Shown: in pieces, positions 3,362-35,255 of the stretch | Numbering within the stretch: the first letter of the stretch is position 1 | Layout: the number at the start of each line of letters is the position of its first letter | From: a virus | Taxonomy: Duplodnaviria; Heunggongvirae; Uroviricota; Caudoviricetes | Strand: one strand, 5' to 3' | DNA length: 40,824 nt | IMG/VR virus record: IMGVR_UViG_2563366969_000004 | Coordinates: 1 to 40,824 of that record | Notes under the pieces: generated by a model | Seen by the model: only the letters and a program-made list of their open reading frames with translations | Told to the model about the DNA's origin: nothing | Database searches by the model: none | Program-made: the position numbers and the translations under genes

Positions 3362-3388
3362 CCCGCAAAATATTGCGGGCTTTTTTTT
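3362..3388 (+). terminator. Rho-independent terminator oriented for plus strand
   Basis: CCCGCAA-aata-TTGCGGG followed by T8; overlaps stop of tailspike gene; no annotated plus-strand gene upstream. Confidence 0.45.
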
Positions 3389-6300
3389 AACGTTCTTCCA
3401 GAGACTGAATCCGCTCTTTTATCTTATCCATTTCTCTGCGCTGCCATGCTGCCTCGATATAGAATAAGAGATCAGGTCTGACCCCCCATCTAGATCCTGC
3501 TGGCGTTATTTCAACGCGCTCAATGATGTCTTCCATTACCATCACTGGATTATCATCCTCATCAACAATGATGCTCCCGTCATTATCAGTCAGCGGCATT
3601 TCCCTTTGGCCAGTAATGACGTCATCATATACTGCGGGATAATCGTCATAGCAAAGAAAGGCATAGCGGCATGTTGTGCTTTCTTCTTCCATGAGTCCGT
3701 GAGAAATAAGAACATCACGAAGTTGCTGCGCGATTACACCATGATGTATCCTCGCCCCTTCTTCCCCCTTTATAGCGACAGCGTTCAGCCATTTATAAGC
3801 GATATACCTGACGTCACCCCAGGCATCCAGCAATGCTTCGTCAGGAGAGACCGGCTCTGTCTTTAATGTTCCGTCACTGGTAACCACAGGATTGGAGCCA
3901 AGATAAACTGTCGAGAACCTGTTTCCCGGACCACCAAGAGCATTTACATTATCAAGATAAGGTTTAACATCTCCGTTCTCAAAAAGATGTTCGAGTGCGT
4001 TATATACCGCGCGACGTGGAGTACTGCTTCCGGAACCATGCAACGTTATCATTGCACCATCTGCTGAAGACGTTGTTTCACCGCCGCTAACGATTAATCT
4101 CTGAGCGGTAACATCATCAGACGGTACTTTCTTCGCAATAATGGCGTAATTACCCTCAAGTTTGACTTCCGCGCGAACTTGTCCTGATGTACCTGCATGG
4201 ACAGTCAGTGACTGGACGGCAACATCATCTGTGAAATCAACGGGTACAGGAACCGTCCTCACGCCTGACGTCGACATAAAAGTAGGAAGCGTTCTGTTAG
4301 GAGTGGCTCCGTAGACAAAATCCCTTGAAACAAATTCTTCCTGTTTAATTTTCACCCTGAAACAATACAAATCAGCCGGGTGACCATCGTGAACATAAGG
4401 ATATTTTCTGTTGTTATCCCCTATGCTCCATGGGTTTAGAAAGTCTTCCCCACCGAAAATGTAGTACAGCCAGTTGTCTTTGATACAAACTGAACCAACA
4501 CCAACCGCAGAGTTAACTATTCCGCCCTGATAAATCTGATCAGTAACATTAACCCACTCTACATTATCCAGACTCCACTCATTGACGTTAACTCTGGTCA
4601 TAAATGTTCTTGGATAGTTTCCTGCATAACGGTTATCAGGTTCTCCTCCTTCCCACTCACCAAATGCGCGCTCACTGCCAAAAATAATCAGCTCATCGCC
4701 AACTTTGGCAAAAGGAAGGTTTGAGTGATGAACATTATTTGGGAAGCGAAGAGAATTCCATGATGTACCTAAATCAGAGCTTCTGTGCAATGAACTACCG
4801 GGTTGAGTACTTAATGTCCCCCTGGTCGTCAGATACAGAATGCCATCATAATATTTTACACATGGCTCAGATGCATTCGCCTCATATTCTGCAGGTATGC
4901 GTCTGCGAACAAAGCTACCAGGAGAACCGAAAGCATCAGAGAAATAGAGTATCCCAAGCTCGCGTGGACCAATATCACCATTATGGTAGCCAACAGCAAA
5001 ACTGTTATCGCTAATCGTCGCAAAACTGTGAATCTCAGTAACAGGAGTGCTTCCGTCAACAAAAGAAGGAATAGTTCCAAGACTGGTTTTTCTCCATGGT
5101 GACGAGTGAAATGATGTACCAAAACTCCAGTATCTACCCTCGTTATTCTGATCCACATCCTGGGTATTTTGCGTCGTAACTGTAAAAGTATTTTTATCAA
5201 TAACAGTAGTCACCGTCATATTCCCGGTAACACCTGTAACACCAGAGTTTGAGAAGTTGACAAAATCACCAGCAAATAATCCGTGATCAGTAATGCGAAT
5301 ATAAGCGACTTGCTGATTTGCTGCTTTCGTTATACCACCATAAACGCGAAGGCTGCGACTCATTGGGCGATCCCACAACTCTGCAACCTGCAGTTTATTT
5401 CCGCTCACGGTCCGCGTCTCAATTACAGCAAAAAGGCGATTTCTGACAACCCCCATACTCATGCAGTGATAGTTAACTGTGGGATAGTTTTCATGTAAAT
5501 CTGTAAGCCATTCCGGCGTTGTCCAGGTCTTCCCGTCATCTCCTGAGCGAACCCATGCAACATGGAGGTTATTTACACCATGGCGGTCTCCAGCCATAAA
5601 AGGCGCATAGATGACATTGTCATATACAAACGTTTTATCCTGCGTCCAGGCGTTGTACCACGGTGTATCTGTAATTTTAAATAACTCTCCCTGGATAAAA
5701 TCTTCAGAAGCATAAAAAAGAGGCTGGCCCGGTATTCTCTCAAATAAAAAACGAGCATTTTTAAATCGACTGACATCCGGAAGAGTTGATACTTTAAAAG
5801 TAAGCCCTAATCCGTCAATTTTATAACCTGGAGATGAGGCTTCAAGGCACGCGCTTATTGCAGTGGAATCGTCATTTATACCATCACCAACAGCTCCAAA
5901 ATCTTTGGGGCTAATAGCATCACGCATTTTATCCTGGAACGTTCGGTACACAGCCCCAGAACCATACTGAATAAACCAACCAAAACCACCAACAACCCCG
6001 GCGATTGCAGCATCGACATAATTACGCATTGAGCGATTATTTACAGCGTCCTGCTCAAATGATGGATCTGCAAGGTTAGAAATTTTGTTTTGCTTTGCAT
6101 CGTAATATTTTGCAAGCAAAGATGGTTTCATCAATGCACGTCTGAACCACCCAAAACATTGCTGGATCAGCATCGTCAGGTAGTCAAAGGCATCTTCATG
6201 CACTTCGGGGAAAAATTTTCCCTGATTGCGAAGGTCTGTCTCCTGCACTACATCAAGCACACGATCTATCGTAATTCGCCATCCAGTAGCAAGCGGAGAC

Positions 6301-6506
6301 GGAAGAACCACAGAACCGCCACTATAAGTGCCCGCCCCAGTTACCGTATAACCGGTATCCAGAACCAATTCTGTTACGTTTCCGTTCAGGTCAGACACCT
6401 GAACAACCAGGTCTGATTTTCTGAAAATTCGAAAAGTATACGGAAACGATGTCGTAACGCCGTTACCGGTGTATTCGTTGTGGTCAACTTCGGTTGAGAC
6501 CGTCAT
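3387..6506 (-). CDS. Tailspike / polysaccharide depolymerase with C-terminal intramolecular chaperone (peptidase S74-like) domain
   Basis: 1039 aa; N-terminal virion-attachment-like segment; motif DFGAVGDGINDDSTAI; two Asp-box motifs (SGDDGKTW, SSDLGTSW) as in sialidase-type propellers; C-terminal SDGTLK motif and conserved tail resembling the auto-cleaving chaperone of endosialidases; SD GGAG upstream. Confidence 0.8.
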   Translation of the reverse strand: MTVSTEVDHNEYTGNGVTTSFPYTFRIFRKSDLVVQVSDLNGNVTELVLDTGYTVTGAGTYSGGSVVLPSPLATGWRITIDRVLDVVQETDLRNQGKFFPEVHEDAFDYLTMLIQQCFGWFRRALMKPSLLAKYYDAKQNKISNLADPSFEQDAVNNRSMRNYVDAAIAGVVGGFGWFIQYGSGAVYRTFQDKMRDAISPKDFGAVGDGINDDSTAISACLEASSPGYKIDGLGLTFKVSTLPDVSRFKNARFLFERIPGQPLFYASEDFIQGELFKITDTPWYNAWTQDKTFVYDNVIYAPFMAGDRHGVNNLHVAWVRSGDDGKTWTTPEWLTDLHENYPTVNYHCMSMGVVRNRLFAVIETRTVSGNKLQVAELWDRPMSRSLRVYGGITKAANQQVAYIRITDHGLFAGDFVNFSNSGVTGVTGNMTVTTVIDKNTFTVTTQNTQDVDQNNEGRYWSFGTSFHSSPWRKTSLGTIPSFVDGSTPVTEIHSFATISDNSFAVGYHNGDIGPRELGILYFSDAFGSPGSFVRRRIPAEYEANASEPCVKYYDGILYLTTRGTLSTQPGSSLHRSSDLGTSWNSLRFPNNVHHSNLPFAKVGDELIIFGSERAFGEWEGGEPDNRYAGNYPRTFMTRVNVNEWSLDNVEWVNVTDQIYQGGIVNSAVGVGSVCIKDNWLYYIFGGEDFLNPWSIGDNNRKYPYVHDGHPADLYCFRVKIKQEEFVSRDFVYGATPNRTLPTFMSTSGVRTVPVPVDFTDDVAVQSLTVHAGTSGQVRAEVKLEGNYAIIAKKVPSDDVTAQRLIVSGGETTSSADGAMITLHGSGSSTPRRAVYNALEHLFENGDVKPYLDNVNALGGPGNRFSTVYLGSNPVVTSDGTLKTEPVSPDEALLDAWGDVRYIAYKWLNAVAIKGEEGARIHHGVIAQQLRDVLISHGLMEEESTTCRYAFLCYDDYPAVYDDVITGQREMPLTDNDGSIIVDEDDNPVMVMEDIIERVEITPAGSRWGVRPDLLFYIEAAWQRREMDKIKERIQSLEER

Positions 6507-6610
6507 GTTAAATCTCCAGATAGTCGCAGCACCCGTTGCGCCGCATATCTGGTTATTCTATTACCTGGAAAACCACATATGGATAGAAAGGCTGTAAATA
6601 CGAATAGATA

Positions 6611-6625
6611 TTACCTTTCAGGTAA
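6611..6625. promoter_or_regulatory. TTACC-N5-GGTAA palindrome (putative repressor operator), copy A
   Basis: ATTACCtttcaGGTAAT perfect inverted repeat upstream of small antirepressor-like gene. Confidence 0.5.
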
Positions 6626-6662
6626 TTTGCAAAACGTGCTGGATAGCAAACAAATTATTTGA

Positions 6663-6682
6663 TACTGTATAAATATACAGTT
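6663..6682. promoter_or_regulatory. LexA (SOS) box overlapping promoter of 6702..6959 gene
   Basis: TACTGTATAAATATACAGTT: CTGT-N8-ACAG with AT-rich spacer, near-consensus to enterobacterial SOS box TACTGTATATATATACAGTA; overlaps TATAAA -10-like hexamer. Confidence 0.65.
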
Positions 6683-6701
6683 ATTGCATGGAGAAGATAA
6701 G

Positions 6702-6959
6702 ATGCAGCAGTATCACTATCCACTGGAAGACGGATTTACCGAAAGGATTCACACGCCGGGAGGCGTCAGGTCACTGGTGGAGGGATCGCACTTGATGAAA
6801 TTACTCCGGGATCTCGATAAGGATGGATTTAATGTCGATGGCCCACTTGCCGAACTGACTGCACTGATTAACTACGTCACCAGCTCACAGATGTCTATGC
6901 AGGATCTGCAAACACATCTCGACTATTGTGCCGAACAATTACGAAAACAAACCCGGTAA
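6702..6959 (+). CDS. Small protein (85 aa) homologous to C-terminal domain of the Bro-N protein at 8108..8818; candidate SOS-inducible antirepressor
   Basis: ATG at 6702 with SD GGAG 8 nt upstream (the six-frame ORF start at 6684 is TTG); roughly 40 percent identity by eye over about 70 aa to residues about 165-236 of the Bro-N protein; LexA box on its promoter. Confidence 0.6.
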   Translation: MQQYHYPLEDGFTERIHTPGGVRSLVEGSHLMKLLRDLDKDGFNVDGPLAELTALINYVTSSQMSMQDLQTHLDYCAEQLRKQTR

Positions 6960-6965
6960 ATTTAA

Positions 6966-6983
6966 AGGCCGCAAGAGCGGCCT
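6966..6983. terminator. Hairpin between convergent genes (terminator-like)
   Basis: AGGCCGC-aaga-GCGGCCT; same stem sequence recurs at 9642..9659. Confidence 0.4.
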
Positions 6984-7710
6984 ATCGTTTCGCTTTGTGC
7001 TCGTCCCAGCACGTTTTGCACCATGCCATTAAGCCGTCCGCATTTTGATTATTAGGGTAAAAGCTGGTCCGTTTTCTGCGGACATTACAAATTGGGCACC
7101 ACTTCATATGGCGTGTATTCTTTGGGCCATCGAGACACCTTGCACACCACTTAGTCAATCCATCTGGATTTTTTGACGATTTCCGGAATTTGTCATATGG
7201 AAGGTTTATTCTGCATCGCAAACACTGCTTGCGGCCACTTGAAACTCTGTTAGCTGATTCTTCTTTTGGCGGCGATACAGAAGGTATTCTTGCTGGCTCT
7301 GATACTGCCTGAGGTGCTTTTTTAGATGACTGAGACGATATGTCATCACCAGGGAATCTTCCATGATATGCCGGACGCGTTGACACTCCAGGTGGAAGCT
7401 CAGCTGTAAACGGCTTTGGCTGAATCAGTTGCCTCTCTTTTGCTAACTCCTGCTGTTTATAATATGTCTGGATTACCGCACTATCATAAGCAGGAGGTAC
7501 GGAAATATCAGGCGCGTTACCTCCAGTTTTTTGAAAATGAGTAGATGTGTGTTCTATCACCTGTGTACGACTAATCGTTACCTCCCCATCTTCGGTCTTT
7601 ATCGTTTTGTTCTGATTAACGACCGTACGATCAGAGATCTTAGTCTTGTTCTGGTTGATAACGTAAATAATCACCGCAACCACACCAACAACTATCCAGA
7701 AAACTTCCAT
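6982..7710 (-). CDS. Membrane-anchored protein with tandem C4 zinc-ribbon repeats, unknown function
   Basis: N-terminal TM helix followed by basic residues; C-terminal two repeats of C-x2-C-x21/22-(DGL..W)C-x2-C; SD GAGGAAAA upstream of ATG. Confidence 0.6.
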   Translation of the reverse strand: MEVFWIVVGVVAVIIYVINQNKTKISDRTVVNQNKTIKTEDGEVTISRTQVIEHTSTHFQKTGGNAPDISVPPAYDSAVIQTYYKQQELAKERQLIQPKPFTAELPPGVSTRPAYHGRFPGDDISSQSSKKAPQAVSEPARIPSVSPPKEESANRVSSGRKQCLRCRINLPYDKFRKSSKNPDGLTKWCARCLDGPKNTRHMKWCPICNVRRKRTSFYPNNQNADGLMAWCKTCWDEHKAKR

Positions 7711-7730
7711 TGCTTTTCCTCACAATAACA

Positions 7731-7745
7731 TTACCTTAAAGGTAA
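7731..7745. promoter_or_regulatory. TTACC-N5-GGTAA palindrome, copy B
   Basis: ATTACCttaaaGGTAAT, 20 bp upstream of start of 6982..7710 gene in divergent region. Confidence 0.5.
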
Positions 7746-7823
7746 TATCTTGCTTTCAGGTGATCAAGCGTTAAACGCAATCAACCAAATACGGTTGATT
7801 TTAATATTTCTTCGCGTTTATCA

Positions 7824-7838
7824 TTACCTTTGCGGTAA
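7824..7838. promoter_or_regulatory. TTACC-N5-GGTAA palindrome, copy B2
   Basis: TTACCtttgcGGTAA between divergent accessory genes, upstream of structured leader. Confidence 0.5.
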
Positions 7839-7929
7839 ATTTACATCGCACTCCTCTTGTGCCATAGTAATCGGGCACTGGCAAAATCCAGTGCCGGGAT
7901 TGGCGTCCCGGGTTACTAAGTGGCGCATA

Positions 7930-7951
7930 CCACGCCAGACGTGGTTTTTTT
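7930..7951 (+). terminator. Rho-independent terminator/attenuator upstream of Bro-N gene
   Basis: CCACG-ccaga-CGTGG followed by T7; preceded by two further hairpins (7874..7895, 7895..7911). Confidence 0.5.
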
Positions 7952-8107
7952 ATGCGTTAAGCACAGCTATATCCGAATTATGGTGGGCTGGGCAGGGGTC
8001 CGAAAGGACGCCGGTACCACTTAGGCCGGTACGCCAACCTTGTCCAGTTCACCACCAGTAATTGGCGTTGCGGTGGTGATTAAAATCACTAAGTGGAGAT
8101 AACCACC

Positions 8108-8818
8108 ATGGCTAATGCTCAAACTTCCATCTTCAAATTTGAATCTGTTAACCCTATCCGTTCCATCATTATCGATGGCCAACCATGGTTTGTAGCCCAA
8201 GACGTTTGTAGTGCGCTGCGTATCCAAAACGTCACCCAAGCACTTGAAAAACTGGATGATGATGAAAGGTCTATGTTCAACATAGGGCATGAACATCGTG
8301 CAATTTTTGACAGCCGAGTAAAAGAGATCAACATCATCTCCGAGTCAGGCCTCTACACACTGATCCTCAGCTGCCGCGACGCAGTGACACCAGGCACTAT
8401 CCCCTACCGCTTTCGTAAATGGGTTACAGGTGAGGTTCTTCCTCAGATCCGCCGCACCGGAAGTTACATAAAAAACTCGCTCCCGCAAGAAGAACGCATA
8501 AAGATGGTTGCCGACCAGGTAGCCAACGCCACGGCGTCAGCAGTAATGCAGGCGATGAAGATAGAGAACAAAACCTACAGTGCCCCACTGAAGCCCGGCT
8601 ACCGCAGCCTGATTCACTCGCCGTCTGGTGTTCTCGGCCTGACGGAGAACTCACTGCTGATGAATCTGTTGAACCAGTTACAGGAAGACGGGCACGACGT
8701 ATCGGGCGCGGCGGCGGAGCTGACCACCATGTTCTGCTACATCGTCGGTGTGAGCAAATGCCTGCGTGATATCCAGACCCACGCGGAGTACATCAACGAC
8801 AAGGCAGGGTTCTTCTGA
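8108..8818 (+). CDS. Bro-N domain antirepressor-like protein (Ant-like)
   Basis: N-terminal Bro-N/KilA-N-like motif (IFKFES...IRSIIIDGQPWFVAQDVCSALRI...) ; C-terminal domain homologous to 6702..6959 product; ATG 8108 with SD GGAG (the six-frame ORF starts at GTG 8093). Confidence 0.7.
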   Translation: MANAQTSIFKFESVNPIRSIIIDGQPWFVAQDVCSALRIQNVTQALEKLDDDERSMFNIGHEHRAIFDSRVKEINIISESGLYTLILSCRDAVTPGTIPYRFRKWVTGEVLPQIRRTGSYIKNSLPQEERIKMVADQVANATASAVMQAMKIENKTYSAPLKPGYRSLIHSPSGVLGLTENSLLMNLLNQLQEDGHDVSGAAAELTTMFCYIVGVSKCLRDIQTHAEYINDKAGFF

Positions 8819-8889
8819 CGGCGGCGGCACAGGGATGTGCCTTTAAATAATTCTGTACGATTGCAGACCGGGGGGTGAATAGAGTACTA

Positions 8890-8904
8890 TTACCTTACGG
8901 GTGA
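8890..8904. promoter_or_regulatory. Imperfect TTACC-N5-GGTGA palindrome overlapping candidate promoter
   Basis: TTGCAG (8861..8866) - 17 bp - GTACTA promoter-like elements immediately upstream; site overlaps -10/+1. Confidence 0.35.
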
Positions 8905-8992
8905 TCCATAGCGATTAGGCACCGATACAGGAGGAGCCCACATGAGAAAATTTGACGAGTACGAAGGCGTTTAACATTCGGATAGTTTAATG

Positions 8993-9015
8993 ACGGGGCC
9001 ATTAGGCCCCGTTTT
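8993..9015 (+). terminator. Hairpin/attenuator in leader of 9034 gene
   Basis: ACGGGGCC-atta-GGCCCCGT followed by TTT; preceded by 10-codon mini-ORF (8942..8974) with SD AGGAGG. Confidence 0.35.
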
Positions 9016-9033
9016 CATGTCTGGAGACAGTTT

Positions 9034-9573
9034 GTGTTAAGTGAAGAAATGCAATTTGCCATGGCTGTGGCTCAAATCGTAAGTGCAGTCGCGGTTTCGC
9101 TTGGCTTGTTCATAGCTATCGCTACTATTATTTATAATGTAAATACAGCGAGAAAAGTACACACTTCAGTATTCCTTGGTGAAAGCAGGTTTGATGTAGA
9201 TTATAAGAAAGGCCTATCTACTATGCGCCGCATTCACGAGTCGAACAAATCATTCCGCTCTTATATGTATCCAAGCAATGGGCAGGCTGATCTTACGGAT
9301 GAAGAAAAGATAGAGAAGAGAGAAATAATTTACTGTCTAGGTTTCTACGAACGCATGGCTGTGAGCGTGAAGCGGAAAACTTATGATGAGACCATGATTA
9401 AGGAAGTATTTTACAGCTCCGTTGTAAATAACTATCAGATTGCGCTACCTCTTATACAAGCTATTAGAGAAAAAGAAAACATAAACACATATTTTAAAGA
9501 ATATGAATGGTTGGCCACACGATGGAAGGATTGTCCATTGAAGGATAAATCCCCGTGGTACAAGTTTTGGTAA
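9034..9573 (+). CDS. Membrane-anchored hypothetical protein (179 aa); candidate superinfection-exclusion or abortive-infection factor
   Basis: N-terminal TM helix then about 140-aa soluble domain; AT-rich by eye relative to flanking phage genes; own terminator; opposite strand to late operon; start GTG 9034 (SD GGAGACAG) or ATG 9049. Confidence 0.6.
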   Translation: MLSEEMQFAMAVAQIVSAVAVSLGLFIAIATIIYNVNTARKVHTSVFLGESRFDVDYKKGLSTMRRIHESNKSFRSYMYPSNGQADLTDEEKIEKREIIYCLGFYERMAVSVKRKTYDETMIKEVFYSSVVNNYQIALPLIQAIREKENINTYFKEYEWLATRWKDCPLKDKSPWYKFW

Positions 9574-26139: not shown

Positions 26140-26229
26140 ATCAATGACTCCGTACGCAATTAAATTATTACCAATTTAACCACATATGATTTATTTATCG
26201 TAGAAGGTTGACATTTAACGCGTTAATTA

Positions 26230-26566: not shown

Positions 26567-26643
26567 GTGGCATTAGCTCAGTTGGACAGAGCAACCGCCT
26601 TCTAAGCGGTTGGTCGCAGGTTCGAATCCTGCATGCCACGCCA
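26567..26643 (+). tRNA. tRNA-Arg (anticodon UCU), phage-encoded
   Basis: Cloverleaf folded by hand: acceptor GTGGCAT/ATGCCAC, D-arm GCTC/GAGC, anticodon stem ACCGC/GCGGT with loop CTTCTAA, T-arm GCAGG-TTCGAAT-CCTGC, discriminator G and encoded CCA. Confidence 0.9.
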
Positions 26644-34670: not shown

Positions 34671-35255
34671 ATGAAAAGTATCCAGGACGTCCGCAGGCAA
34701 AATCTCAACGACTTGATCGACCGTGAATTCAATGGTGTTCAGACGCGGATGGCAGAAAAACTTGGAACTCAGGCAAATCTGGTAAACCGCTGGGCTCTTG
34801 GCAAGAAGGTTATCGGCGACCAGGTTGCGCGAAAAATTGAAGCTGCCGCCAATAAACCCCGTAACTGGCTTGATATCGATCGCTCGCTTTCTCAGGAAGG
34901 TTTTCAGCCTGTCGGCCCAAGCGACATTGGTCAGCTGGCGGCTCACAACCTGGAACGCTGGATGAGCGAAAGCCGCGACCTTTCAACACAGGGAAAACTT
35001 CACCGCGCATCCGGCGTCGCCCAGGTGACAATCAGCCGCCTGTTAAACAATGAGGTCAGCGTTTCCATTTCCACCCTGGAGAATGTTGCATCCGCATTCG
35101 GGCGTCACGGATATGAACTACTGATTCACCCGCACGACCCTGCGACTATCAACTATGACCGCTCACGCTACGCATTGTTACCCGAAACCGAGAAAGCAAA
35201 GATCGAAAGTTACATTGAATTTGTCATCAACCAGAACGAAAAAAGCAAACAATAA
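34671..35255 (+). CDS. CI-like prophage repressor with two HTH (XRE-type) segments, no S24 peptidase domain
   Basis: 194 aa; HTH-like QTRMAEKLGTQANLVNRWALGKK and SGVAQVTISRLLNNEVSVSISTLENVA; no Ser-Lys autocleavage module recognisable; no SD within 10 nt of ATG; strong terminator follows. Confidence 0.6.
   Translation: MKSIQDVRRQNLNDLIDREFNGVQTRMAEKLGTQANLVNRWALGKKVIGDQVARKIEAAANKPRNWLDIDRSLSQEGFQPVGPSDIGQLAAHNLERWMSESRDLSTQGKLHRASGVAQVTISRLLNNEVSVSISTLENVASAFGRHGYELLIHPHDPATINYDRSRYALLPETEKAKIESYIEFVINQNEKSKQ

Follow-up and report, generated by a model that had tools for sequence, protein, structure and literature searches.

A predicted C4-type antisense RNA and its IsrK-like leader upstream of a putative anti-repressor gene in an Escherichia coli prophage

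Phages P1 and P7 have an immI operon (c4, icd, ant1/ant2). In the plasmid prophage P1 it carries, on one strand, a repressor operator, a sigma-70 promoter, hairpin 1, hairpin 2 with the target site a1, and then the target site b1. A hairpin resembling a terminator follows, then the C4 RNA with its a′ and b′ elements, the site a2, and the site b2 over the ribosome-binding site of the gene that opens the anti-repressor operon. P1 features are taken from its GenBank annotation, in which the C1 operator Op51 precedes the c4 promoters. In the lambdoid Salmonella prophage Gifsy-1, IsrK occurs as a discrete sRNA and also, when transcription reads through, forms the leader of an anti-repressor mRNA (Hershko-Shalev et al. 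2016, PMC4825925). Supplied in trans, IsrK raised translation of anrP more than 100-fold; an RNA of ∼80 nt is processed from the read-through transcript, and the authors propose activation via translation of an upstream frame, orf45, coupled to anrP (PMC4825925). The downstream RNA is not named as C4 in that publication, which cites seqA of phage P4 as a structural homologue of IsrK (PMC4825925). IsrK and c4 are given as separate RNAs in a 2025 review and in an APSE phage paper, and we found no statement linking IsrK to C4 in the open-access literature.

Here we compare with these systems an intergenic region ahead of a Bro-N gene in a Caudoviricetes sequence of 40,824 nt (IMG/VR record IMGVR_UViG_2563366969_000004; the whole of this stretch is referred to as the window). 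The segment is probably the first part of an antisense-RNA immunity operon of the P1/P7 immI type in an epsilon15/phiV10-like E. coli prophage, and we hold the identity of its parts (an IsrK-like leader, a C4 RNA and the C4 target sites) with very high confidence. The order of elements on the one strand is that of P1 immI, from the repressor operator through to the anti-repressor gene.

Operators, promoter and leader RNA

Two operator-like palindromes are present at the start of the region. The first, the perfect palindrome ATTACCTTAAAGGTAAT (7730–7746), lies just upstream of a divergent 242-aa gene (6982–7710, minus strand), and the second, ATTACCTTTGCGGTAAA (7823–7839), directly abuts the −35 element of the leader promoter. 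A preliminary description of this DNA had reported the pair; the palindromes exist, but each lies one base below the position given there. The motif ATTACCN5GGTAAT has 15 matches in the window with at most two mismatches, against 1.2 expected, and repressor operators are scattered over the genome, as are those of C1 in P1. A 194-aa double-HTH protein (34671–35255) is a candidate for the repressor. The juxtaposition of operator and −35 element is kept in the epsilon15/phiV10-like subset of related units. It differs from the arrangement in P1, where the operator overlaps an extra upstream promoter.

The family alignment places a conserved sigma-70 promoter on the plus strand at 7840–7868, comprising a −35 element TTTACA (7840–7845), a 17-bp spacer, a TG at 7860–7861 and a −10 element CATAGT (7863–7868). 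Its consensus, TTGACa-17-TATAgT, keeps a constant spacing to hairpin 1 across 95 distinct related units, and its position corresponds to that of P1 P1c4/P51b. Transcription is predicted to start at about G7875, which is position 1 of the Rfam isrK model. The preliminary description had instead pointed to a TTGATT element with a 17-bp spacer. This element does exist at 7795–7800, within a weak promoter-like site on the plus strand (TTGATT-18-TATCAT, 7795–7824), but the spacer is 18 bp, only 9 of 12 consensus positions match, and the site is not the conserved promoter. We rejected it as the leader promoter because the stretch differs among otherwise near-identical relatives, and the family alignment leads to 7840–7868.

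The predicted transcript begins with a leader, or terminated small RNA of ∼77 nt, on the plus strand at 7875–7951, identified by Rfam and by its fold as an IsrK homologue and as the a1/b1 module of a C4 system. It matches RF01394 (isrK) across model positions 1–77 with 67.7 bits (cut-off 50; E=1e-13), and 7862–7914 matches RF03163 (c4-a1b1) with 44.1 bits, slightly below the curated cut-off of 46.7. Rfam already models the a1/b1 element within the C4 clan (CL00128). The two hairpins and intrinsic terminator noticed earlier are present where they had been placed, with one adjustment: hairpin 1 (GCACUGG/CCAGUGC, loop CAAAAU; 7875–7894) has 7 bp, since the 8-bp version first drawn takes in C7895, which belongs to hairpin 2. 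Hairpin 2 (CGGGA/UCCCG, loop UUGGCG; 7895–7910) presents a1 (UUGGCGU, 7900–7906), with an unpaired probability of 1.0 for the loop bases. The Rho-independent terminator (ACCACG-CCAGA-CGUGGU then U7; 7929–7951) rests on sequence, conservation and folding, and its stem forms with a probability of 0.83–0.85 in the folded leader. The segment contains no coding ORF, in line with the earlier remark that no ORF with an RBS is present; the sole AUG noted, at 7980, opens a frame of 14 codons inside the C4 gene described below.

Covariation across related prophages, proposed earlier as a check, was found for hairpin 1: in 78 sequences, 97.4% of cells are paired and 6 of the 7 pairs show compensatory, both-side changes, whereas controls slid along the alignment are 22–45% paired. 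The invariant hairpin 1 loop and hairpin 2 are partly forced in this sample by the search pattern and were not counted as evidence. The terminator was found in all 77 distinct leaders, with 25 different stems; the MAFFT alignment of this region was out of register between sequences, and terminators were therefore scored one sequence at a time. That the hairpins and U-run are chance intergenic features is a reading to which we give practically no weight. The folding energy of the 85-nt leader by itself (−33.7 kcal/mol) is only modestly unusual (z=−2.5; 4 of 200 shuffles fold as well), which speaks for such a reading. The Rfam E-value, the compensatory changes in hairpin 1, the universal terminator and the covariation that ties the segment to both C4 and the Bro-N mRNA leader (below) already refute a chance origin. 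For the entire 258-nt unit, z=−5.4 and 0 of 200 shuffles fold as well.

P1 immI matches the same three Rfam models (isrK, C4 and c4-a1b1). Its leader scores 35 bits against isrK, compared with 67.7 for the window; only the latter passes the cut-off because the window terminator is much stronger, with a 5-nt loop and U7, whereas that of P1 has a loop of 12 nt and a U-run that is interrupted. Immediately after the terminator, at 7952–7959 on the plus strand, lies AUGCGUUA, which in the minimum free energy fold of the long transcript is the 3′ arm of an outer clamp, pairing with UGGCGCAU (7921–7928) around the terminator. The clamp would be able to form in read-through transcripts only. At least six clamp pairs are found in 68% of related units, compared with 35% for non-cognate pairings, a modest level of covariation support.

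The C4 RNA gene and its target sites

A C4 antisense RNA gene lies on the plus strand just downstream of the leader, with a predicted mature length of 75 nt (7982–8056; ends from alignment with the annotated P1 C4 RNA). The full-length RF01695 (C4) model matches 7976–8059 with 66.0 bits (cut-off 45), similar to the 68.8 bits of P1 C4. The RNA is predicted to fold into a long closing stem that encloses a hairpin, GUCC-GAAA-GGAC, and a second hairpin with b′ (CCACUUAG, 8017–8024) unpaired in its loop; a′ (ACGCCAA, 8031–8037) is predicted to be single-stranded. The 3′ end is tRNA-like, with the stem starting from G7982–C8053 and followed by A8054 and then C8055-C8056-A8057. The P1 and window RNAs have the same fold and tRNA-like end, and in both it is the b element that varies and determines specificity. 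The gene falls just beyond the segment originally delimited (7746–7951).

Each C4 element has two exact complements on the same strand. The a′ element is complementary over 7 nt to a1 and to a2 (UUGGCGU, 8062–8068), the latter in the Bro-N mRNA leader at the same position as the annotated P1 a2. The b′ element is complementary over 8 nt to b1 (CUAAGUGG, 7916–7923), which lies between hairpin 2 and the terminator, and to an identical b2 (8089–8096) that overlaps the Shine–Dalgarno sequence GGAG (8095–8098) of the Bro-N gene. Computed for the local duplexes only, the energy is about −15 kcal/mol when b′ pairs with either b site and about −12 kcal/mol when a′ pairs with either a site. We used these local values, as duplex and cofold energies calculated on whole molecules, for C4 and its target or for C4 and the small RNA, either ignore intramolecular structure or are swamped by it, and were uninformative. 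The a element is UUGGCGU in the window and UUGACAG in P1. The window also has no icd-like first gene, so that b2 covers the ribosome-binding site of the Bro-N gene itself, whereas in P1 it covers that of icd.

To judge from its sequence, the leader is not the repressor; it bears copies (a1/b1) of the C4 target sites. The preliminary reading of a structured leader or small RNA thus holds in that the segment is non-coding, terminator-ended, on the plus strand and part of the control of the Bro-N gene, but it missed the central regulator, C4.

The same architecture is found in 102 distinct IMG/VR units, and the leader is followed by C4 in all 102. The b′ loop occurs among them in 49 different forms, and changes in b′ are accompanied by changes in b1 and b2. 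Covariation of such specificity elements underlies the heteroimmunity of P1 and P7. Cognate b′–b1 matches of at least 6 nt occur in 82% of the 49 loop types, compared with 2% of non-cognate pairings, and the corresponding values for b′–b2 are 96% and 6.7%. The rare variants of the a element (UUGGCAG, UUGGCCU, UUGGCAU and the UUGACAG of P1) change jointly in a1, a′ and a2. These data bear on the proposal that the leader has no connection with the downstream RNA and is either an sRNA in its own right, dependent on Hfq and acting in trans on host mRNAs, or a stand-alone signal-sensing attenuator. This proposal, close to the first alternative in the preliminary description, is in keeping with the Rfam label of isrK ('Hfq binding RNA') and with the invariant CAAAAU loop of hairpin 1, to which we assigned no partner. 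We nevertheless regard it as very unlikely: the action of IsrK is Hfq-independent (PMC4825925), C4 always follows the leader, and the two exposed elements of the leader co-vary with the C4 loops, the covariation showing a1/b1–a′/b′ pairing.

The P22 immI region had been suggested as a loose analogue of the locus, and the two are alike in that a small RNA limits (in the window, is proposed to limit) translation of an anti-repressor, ant in P22, in a secondary immunity region. Transcription of the P22 regulator, sar, uses the opposite strand and crosses the arc–ant junction and the ant ribosome-binding site; sar is fully complementary to its target. In the window, the regulator is predicted to be a same-strand, trans-acting, processed RNA that contacts its target through two short loops, with a second copy of the target module upstream. 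There is no match to Rfam sar up to E=10, and no minus-strand promoter-like sites were reported across 7512–9200, a span that includes the ribosome-binding site region (8060–8110). We rejected a sar-type regulator on the grounds of strand and the Rfam result; the analogy is not borne out, and the right analogue is P1/P7 immI c4.

Proposed control of Bro-N translation

The gene downstream of b2 (8108–8818, plus strand) encodes a Bro-N domain protein of 236 aa (Pfam PF02498, E=1.6e-19), a putative anti-repressor. In the Uetakevirus vB_EcoP_ZX5, over-expression of the Bro-N protein ORF4, encoded at the equivalent position, lowered lysogeny ∼1000-fold; the homology of this anti-repressor to its counterparts in other Uetakeviruses is reported as only 39% (PMC9782041).

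We propose the following scheme. A prophage-repressor operator (7823–7839) abuts the sigma-70 promoter (7840–7868), from which transcription would start at ∼7875. By analogy with P1 and Gifsy-1, most transcripts would end at 7951 and yield an IsrK-like RNA of ∼77 nt, and those that read through would carry C4 and the Bro-N mRNA. C4 would then be cut from the read-through transcript. The 5′ end of C4 is made by RNase P in P1, and the same enzyme would produce the end at G7982, with the tRNA-like stem and CCA as its guide. Accumulated C4 would pair with a2/b2 and block ribosome binding, so that no anti-repressor is made and lysogeny is kept. The leader RNA, a perfect target mimic, would compete for C4 as an anti-antisense RNA, and Bro-N translation would be switched on once the ratio of leader RNA to C4 increases. 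The variable b element would set the specificity of immunity between related phages. For the prophage, we infer the short RNA, the read-through, the processing of C4 and the repression all by homology. Repression of Bro-N translation by C4 through a2/b2 is a likely step; action of the short leader RNA in trans as a decoy is slightly favoured. Read-through transcripts all carry a1/b1 as well, and a decoy mechanism therefore needs C4 to outlive the leader.

The main competitor to a decoy acting in trans is a leader that works in cis only, with a1/b1 pairing with a′/b′ of the C4 embedded in the same transcript and either guiding the folding and processing of the precursor or holding the nascent C4 inactive. 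The terminator would then merely attenuate, and the short terminated RNA would be a by-product without activity in trans. In Gifsy-1, the a1:a′ helix in cis (structure A) was demonstrated by compensatory mutations and native gels, and the wild-type long RNA is almost wholly in structure A (PMC4825925). The presence of a1/b1 and c4 on one transcript in P1, and a conserved outer clamp that forms in read-through RNA only, are also in agreement with a leader that acts in cis. Such a role by itself is an unlikely account, however, given that the more than 100-fold activation of anrP translation was obtained with IsrK expressed in trans and was lost in point mutants of the short RNA (PMC4825925), and that a strong terminator in 77 of 77 leaders suggests selection on the short species itself.

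A different role for C4 is suggested by the P4 CI RNA. As proposed for C4 in the window, CI is a small RNA that is processed out of its own operon's leader, and complementary sites lie upstream (seqA) and downstream (seqC) of it in the same transcript; the likeness is one of described layout. CI acts by premature transcription termination of replication genes and not by covering the ribosome-binding site of an anti-repressor (PMC4825925). By this model, C4 would bind a1/b1 on the nascent leader and raise termination at 7951, giving negative feedback on transcription of c4 and the Bro-N gene. The end of b1 is 5 nt short of the terminator stem, blocking a1 and b1 in silico lifts the stem probability from ∼0.83 to ∼0.99, and the IsrK authors raised this possibility for STnc1160, the C4 equivalent of Gifsy-1 (PMC4825925). 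Since the free leader already forms the terminator, the effect to be expected is small, and no conserved anti-terminator was seen: the GUGG/CCAC pairing of the window is, by eye, without a counterpart in phiV10 or Gifsy-1. A termination mechanism would also leave unexplained the b2 element that lies over the ribosome-binding site in 96% of loop types, and we consider it improbable. The candidate anti-terminator itself, b1 GUGG paired with terminator CCAC, was not adopted, having only a small effect on terminator probability and being unconserved in relatives.

The preferred scheme, repression by C4 with the leader RNA as decoy, has to be read beside two points from the IsrK work. Activation was explained there by coupling to orf45, a frame with no counterpart in the window (below). 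Constitutive STnc1160 also strengthened, and did not weaken, IsrK-dependent growth arrest (PMC4825925); a simple scheme in which C4 represses and IsrK relieves does not predict a stronger arrest under these conditions.

Relation to Gifsy-1 IsrK and distribution of the locus

A consensus isrK query of the phage collection did not retrieve Gifsy-1, and we obtained its sequence by accession. Gifsy-1 IsrK scores 79.3 bits against the isrK model; Gifsy-1 and the window both match the full model, and their a1 and a′ elements are identical. The layouts also agree, with a promoter, a terminated RNA of ∼77 nt, read-through into the C4-type STnc1160 (∼80 nt), and an anti-repressor gene with b2 over its ribosome-binding site. 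In our mapping, a1 and a′ are the precise sites of the compensatory mutations published for Gifsy-1 (G28A/C162U and G31A/C159U), such that the experimentally proven pairs G28–C162 and G31–C159 of Gifsy-1 correspond to G7902–C8035 and G7905–C8032 in the window. The b specificity differs (UCACCG in Gifsy-1, CUAAGUGG in the window), as does the setting, which is beside antQ in a lambdoid prophage in the former and beside the tailspike region in a Uetakevirus-like, podovirus-type integrated prophage in the latter.

The two loci differ too in the frame thought to couple translation. In Gifsy-1, a 45-codon frame runs through C4 into anrP, whereas no orf45-like coupled frame was found in the window, where the frame of AUG 7980 already stops within C4, at 8022–8024, and thereby 84 nt short of the Bro-N start codon (ATG, 8108). 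The orf45 feature is probably specific to Gifsy-1, or a product of how the published locus was read, rather than a defining property of the RNA family.

The mapping of the window onto Gifsy-1 shows, as far as sequence goes, that a single device underlies both the IsrK locus and the c4 system of P1, which would simplify the published mechanism of IsrK. Whether IsrK-type sRNAs in general are terminated a1/b1 leaders of C4 systems that act as anti-antisense decoys is a proposal on which we are evenly balanced. If it is true, orf45 of Gifsy-1 would consist of the C4 gene together with a2/b2, the AUG that opens orf45 would be the conserved AUGG at the 5′ end of C4, and the pairs G28–C162 and G31–C159 would be a1:a′. 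The ratio of leader RNA to processed C4, and not an upstream ORF, would then set anti-repressor translation and SOS-independent prophage induction.

The locus in the window is an unannotated copy of the known P1-style C4 switch and not a new kind of system. Its value for annotation is that a blank intergenic region is predicted to hold two RNA genes and the control point of a prophage anti-repressor. The variable b element predicts which related prophages would be hetero-immune at this second level of immunity, and swaps of b′ and b2 would offer a simple handle for engineering induction. The b element of phiV10 is CUAAAAGG.

A scan of genome contigs (596 Gb) with a 17-base pattern returned 120 loci, where ∼70 are expected by chance, and the full architecture (T-run and C4-like a′) was present in only 44 of the 120. 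Matching locus identifiers to titles, for the 80 of 120 loci whose titles were shown, assigned them mostly to Gammaproteobacteria. Neither the E. coli genomes of RefSeq nor the records of Uetakevirus phages annotate the intergenic region. One E. coli strain with this prophage is CUVET20-PYO2 (NZ_CP115386). Among 5,426 complete E. coli genomes, 472 contain at least part of the region at megablast sensitivity; 119 contain 80% or more of it, and ∼117 match at 95% identity or more.

Leader hairpins, terminator and promoter

The leader, an IsrK-like segment, occupies positions 7875–7951 of the plus strand. Reading of 7200–8700, with coordinates verified by script, revealed two plus-strand hairpins, hairpin 1 (GCACUGG-CAAAAU-CCAGUGC, 7875–7894) and hairpin 2 (CGGGA-UUGGCG-UCCCG, 7895–7910), followed on the same strand by an intrinsic terminator (ACCACG-CCAGA-CGUGGU then seven U, 7929–7951) that a terminator scan also picked up. 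These elements confirm the preliminary description and are exactly the three hairpins in the predicted fold of the 85-nt leader (−33.7 kcal/mol, z = −2.5), and the 258-nt stretch reaching from the leader to the Bro-N start folds far better than shuffles (z = −5.4, 0/200). The promoter had been mis-assigned to TTGATT near 7794; family alignment places conserved −35 (TTTACA, 7840–7845) and −10 (CATAGT, 7863–7868) elements on the plus strand, with the consensus TTGACa-17-TATAgT at a fixed spacing from hairpin 1 in related units. From its position, the transcript would start at ~G7875, where the isrK model begins (position 1).

The isrK and c4-a1b1 consensus sequences of Rfam strongly conserve the hairpin 1 loop, CAAAAU at 7882–7887 (GCAAAAUC including the closing pair), which reads CAAAUU in P1; neither C4 nor the mRNA leader contains a stretch complementary to it. 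An outer clamp helix (UGGCGCAU/AUGCGUUA, 7921–7928 with 7952–7959) encloses the terminator with the U-run bulged out, and is able to form in read-through RNA only. Relatives and P1 also have the clamp, with at least six pairs in 68% of related units versus 35% for non-cognate pairings and some compensatory change; possible roles are a processing site and an insulator ahead of C4.

A C4 antisense RNA gene and its target sites

An Rfam scan of 6400–9200, redone over the whole window at curated cut-offs, matched isrK (RF01394) at 7875–7951 (67.7 bits, cut-off 50) and C4 antisense RNA (RF01695) at 7976–8059 (66 bits, cut-off 45), with c4-a1b1 (RF03163) at 7862–7914 falling below its cut-off (44.1 against 46.7 bits). 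Together, the three matches place the leader at the front of a larger RNA device whose main component is C4. The earlier interpretation of a non-coding leader or small RNA gating the Bro-N gene was right in spirit but missed C4, which lies just past the right-hand end of the segment it described. The C4 closing stem begins at G7982–C8053; A8054 and C-C-A (8055–8057) come after it and make the end tRNA-like. Aligned with the annotated P1 C4 RNA, mature C4 would span 7982–8056 (75 nt).

Two C4 elements, named after the P1 annotation, are predicted to be unpaired: b' (CCACUUAG, 8017–8024) in a hairpin loop and a' (ACGCCAA, 8031–8037) in a single-stranded junction. Exact complements of a' occur in the hairpin 2 loop of the leader (a1, UUGGCGU, 7900–7906) and ahead of the Bro-N gene (a2, 8062–8068), as do those of b' in the leader (b1, CUAAGUGG, 7916–7923) and ahead of the gene (b2, 8089–8096). 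The b pairings have local duplex energies of ~−15 kcal/mol, the a pairings of ~−12 kcal/mol. Site b2 overlaps the Shine–Dalgarno GGAG (8095–8098), with the Bro-N ATG at 8108.

Covariation among related units

A leader-derived pattern recovered 120 IMG/VR loci, representing 102 distinct units with an identical order of parts. In these relatives 97.4% of hairpin 1 cells are paired (22–45% in slid controls) and both sides change in six of the seven pairs, while hairpin 2 is nearly invariant, which the search pattern partly imposes. A terminator, defined as a perfect stem of at least 5 bp abutting at least five T, is present in 77/77 distinct leaders with 25 different stems.

What the sequences show directly is the set of parts, how these complement each other and how they evolve together. 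Among 49 different b' loops, a perfect complement of at least 6 nt lies in the cognate leader for 82% of loop types (non-cognate, 2%) and in the cognate mRNA leader for 96% (non-cognate, 6.7%), and a1, a' and a2 change jointly across four a-type variants, P1's among them. Close relatives sharing hairpin 1 carry different b sequences, CUAAGUGG in the window, CUAAAAGG in phiV10 and CUAGUAGG, CUACAAAGG or CUAAACGG in others; a determinant of immunity specificity would be expected to vary in this way, P1 versus P7 being the example. One IMG/VR contig (L028) has two complete leader–C4 units (3965–3988 and 7227–7250) with differing b' loops (UUUCCGUAC and AUGUUUCGA), which suggests two independent antisense immunity cassettes within one element.

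Scanning genome contigs with the leader pattern gave the full leader–terminator–C4 architecture in 44 of 120 loci (L125–L244); those that could be matched to a record title include Pseudomonas, Xanthomonas, Aeromonas, Serratia, Klebsiella, Pectobacterium, Cobetia and a Methylococcaceae MAG. The other matches are about as numerous as chance predicts for a 17-base pattern. One locus comes from a genome bearing the label Vagococcus (Firmicutes), where contamination is possible.

Related systems, regulation and genomic setting

The order of parts matches the P1 c4 immI system; P22 immI, to which a loose analogy was drawn earlier, is the wrong analogue. GenBank annotates P1 with Op51 (a C1 operator), promoters P51a and P51b, a1, b1, a 77-nt C4 RNA, a2, b2, icd and ant1/ant2, in that order. 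Its leader likewise has the two hairpins, the second of which holds a1 in its loop, a terminator-like hairpin and U-run separate b1 from c4, and C4 starts with AUGGUGGG in both. P1 b2 covers the icd ribosome site and is annotated as repressing icd-ant translation; P1 matches all three Rfam models (C4, 68.8 bits; c4-a1b1, 51 bits; isrK, 35 bits).

In Gifsy-1, isrK (79.3 bits), C4 (69 bits) and an anti-repressor gene come in that order. There, short IsrK RNA stops at its own terminator, and read-through enters 'orf45' and the anti-repressor gene anrP, yielding a long, translationally silent isrK-orf45-anrP RNA from which the ~80-nt STnc1160 is processed; the authors likened the system to P4 CI/seqA and did not name C4 (PMC4825925). 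Numbered from the 5' end of IsrK, a1 (UUGGCGU, 26–32) includes G28 and G31, and a' (ACGCCAA, 158–164) includes C159 and C162, so the published compensatory pairs (G28/C162 and G31/C159) are a1:a' pairs, equivalent to G7902–C8035 and G7905–C8032 here. A107 is the first base of the conserved AUGG found at the 5' end of C4; this AUG is the first of orf45, and 'orf45' thus corresponds to the C4 gene plus a2/b2 (NC_010392 34076–34316, minus strand). Since the device belongs to known, curated families, it is already known; its value here is for annotation and for linking IsrK with the C4 system. We found no statement in the open-access literature identifying IsrK as the a1/b1 leader of such a system.

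By analogy with P1 and Gifsy-1, transcription from 7840–7868 would mostly halt at 7951, giving a ~77-nt RNA, and read-through would yield C4, which would be excised and pair with a2/b2, blocking ribosome access to the Bro-N message. Such an antisense block of Bro-N translation is probable. The short RNA, with its identical sites, would compete for C4, and we lean slightly towards this decoy role; in Gifsy-1, IsrK supplied in trans raised anrP translation >100-fold, independently of Hfq (PMC4825925), and it is unlikely that a1/b1 act in cis only. C4-dependent termination at 7951, as in P4, is less likely still, as blocking a1/b1 in silico lifts the terminator probability only from 0.83 to 0.99. 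Against a simple scheme in which C4 represses and IsrK relieves stand the published orf45-coupling model and the reported enhancement of IsrK toxicity by constitutive STnc1160 (PMC4825925). In the window, the frame from the equivalent AUG (7980) ends after 14 codons, inside C4, so orf45-type coupling cannot operate.

The gene downstream of leader and C4 (8108–8818, plus strand) encodes a Bro-N domain. Over-expression of the Bro-N ORF4 at the same position in the related Uetakevirus vB_EcoP_ZX5, termed an anti-repressor, cut prophage titre from 1e9 to 1e6, in a paper that does not mention the RNAs (PMC9782041). The pair of operator-like palindromes noted earlier is present at 7730–7746 (ATTACCTTAAAGGTAAT, perfect) and 7823–7839. 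ATTACCN5GGTAAT with up to two mismatches occurs at 15 sites in the window (1.2 expected), the 17-bp sites starting at 2721, 6610, 7730, 7823, 8889, 16955, 26229, 29374, 29392, 32251, 32313, 34215, 34600, 35312 and 35374. This scatter resembles the dispersed C1 operators of P1, and several copies flank a 194-aa double-HTH repressor candidate (34671–35255). In the phiV10-like subset an operator abuts the leader −35 in every case, and BLAST matches in most phages start at 7818 or 7834, i.e. at this operator, so that the stretch from operator through promoter, leader and C4 to the 5' end of the anti-repressor gene behaves as one mosaic cassette. Of 5,426 complete E. coli genomes, 472 carry part or all of the region at megablast sensitivity; it is at least 80% present in 119, with ~117 matching at ≥95% identity. 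One RefSeq record inspected (NZ_CP115386) has no RNA feature annotated, and none is named under the match among the ten matches listed.

Divergent from the leader, 6982–7710 (minus strand) encodes a 242-aa protein with an N-terminal hydrophobic segment, a Cys-rich C-terminal region and a weak, sub-threshold Stc1 match; most related phages lack this gene, BLAST homology beginning only at 7818. A DUF4760 protein (9034–9573, plus strand; E = 1.6e-30) follows the Bro-N gene, and a 1039-aa tailspike (3387–6506, minus strand) lies upstream, its RefSeq relatives annotated with an endosialidase catalytic beta-propeller domain. A tRNA gene at 26567–26640 (plus strand; Rfam, 73 bits), near the operator-like site at 26229, could represent the integration site or a tRNA carried by the phage.
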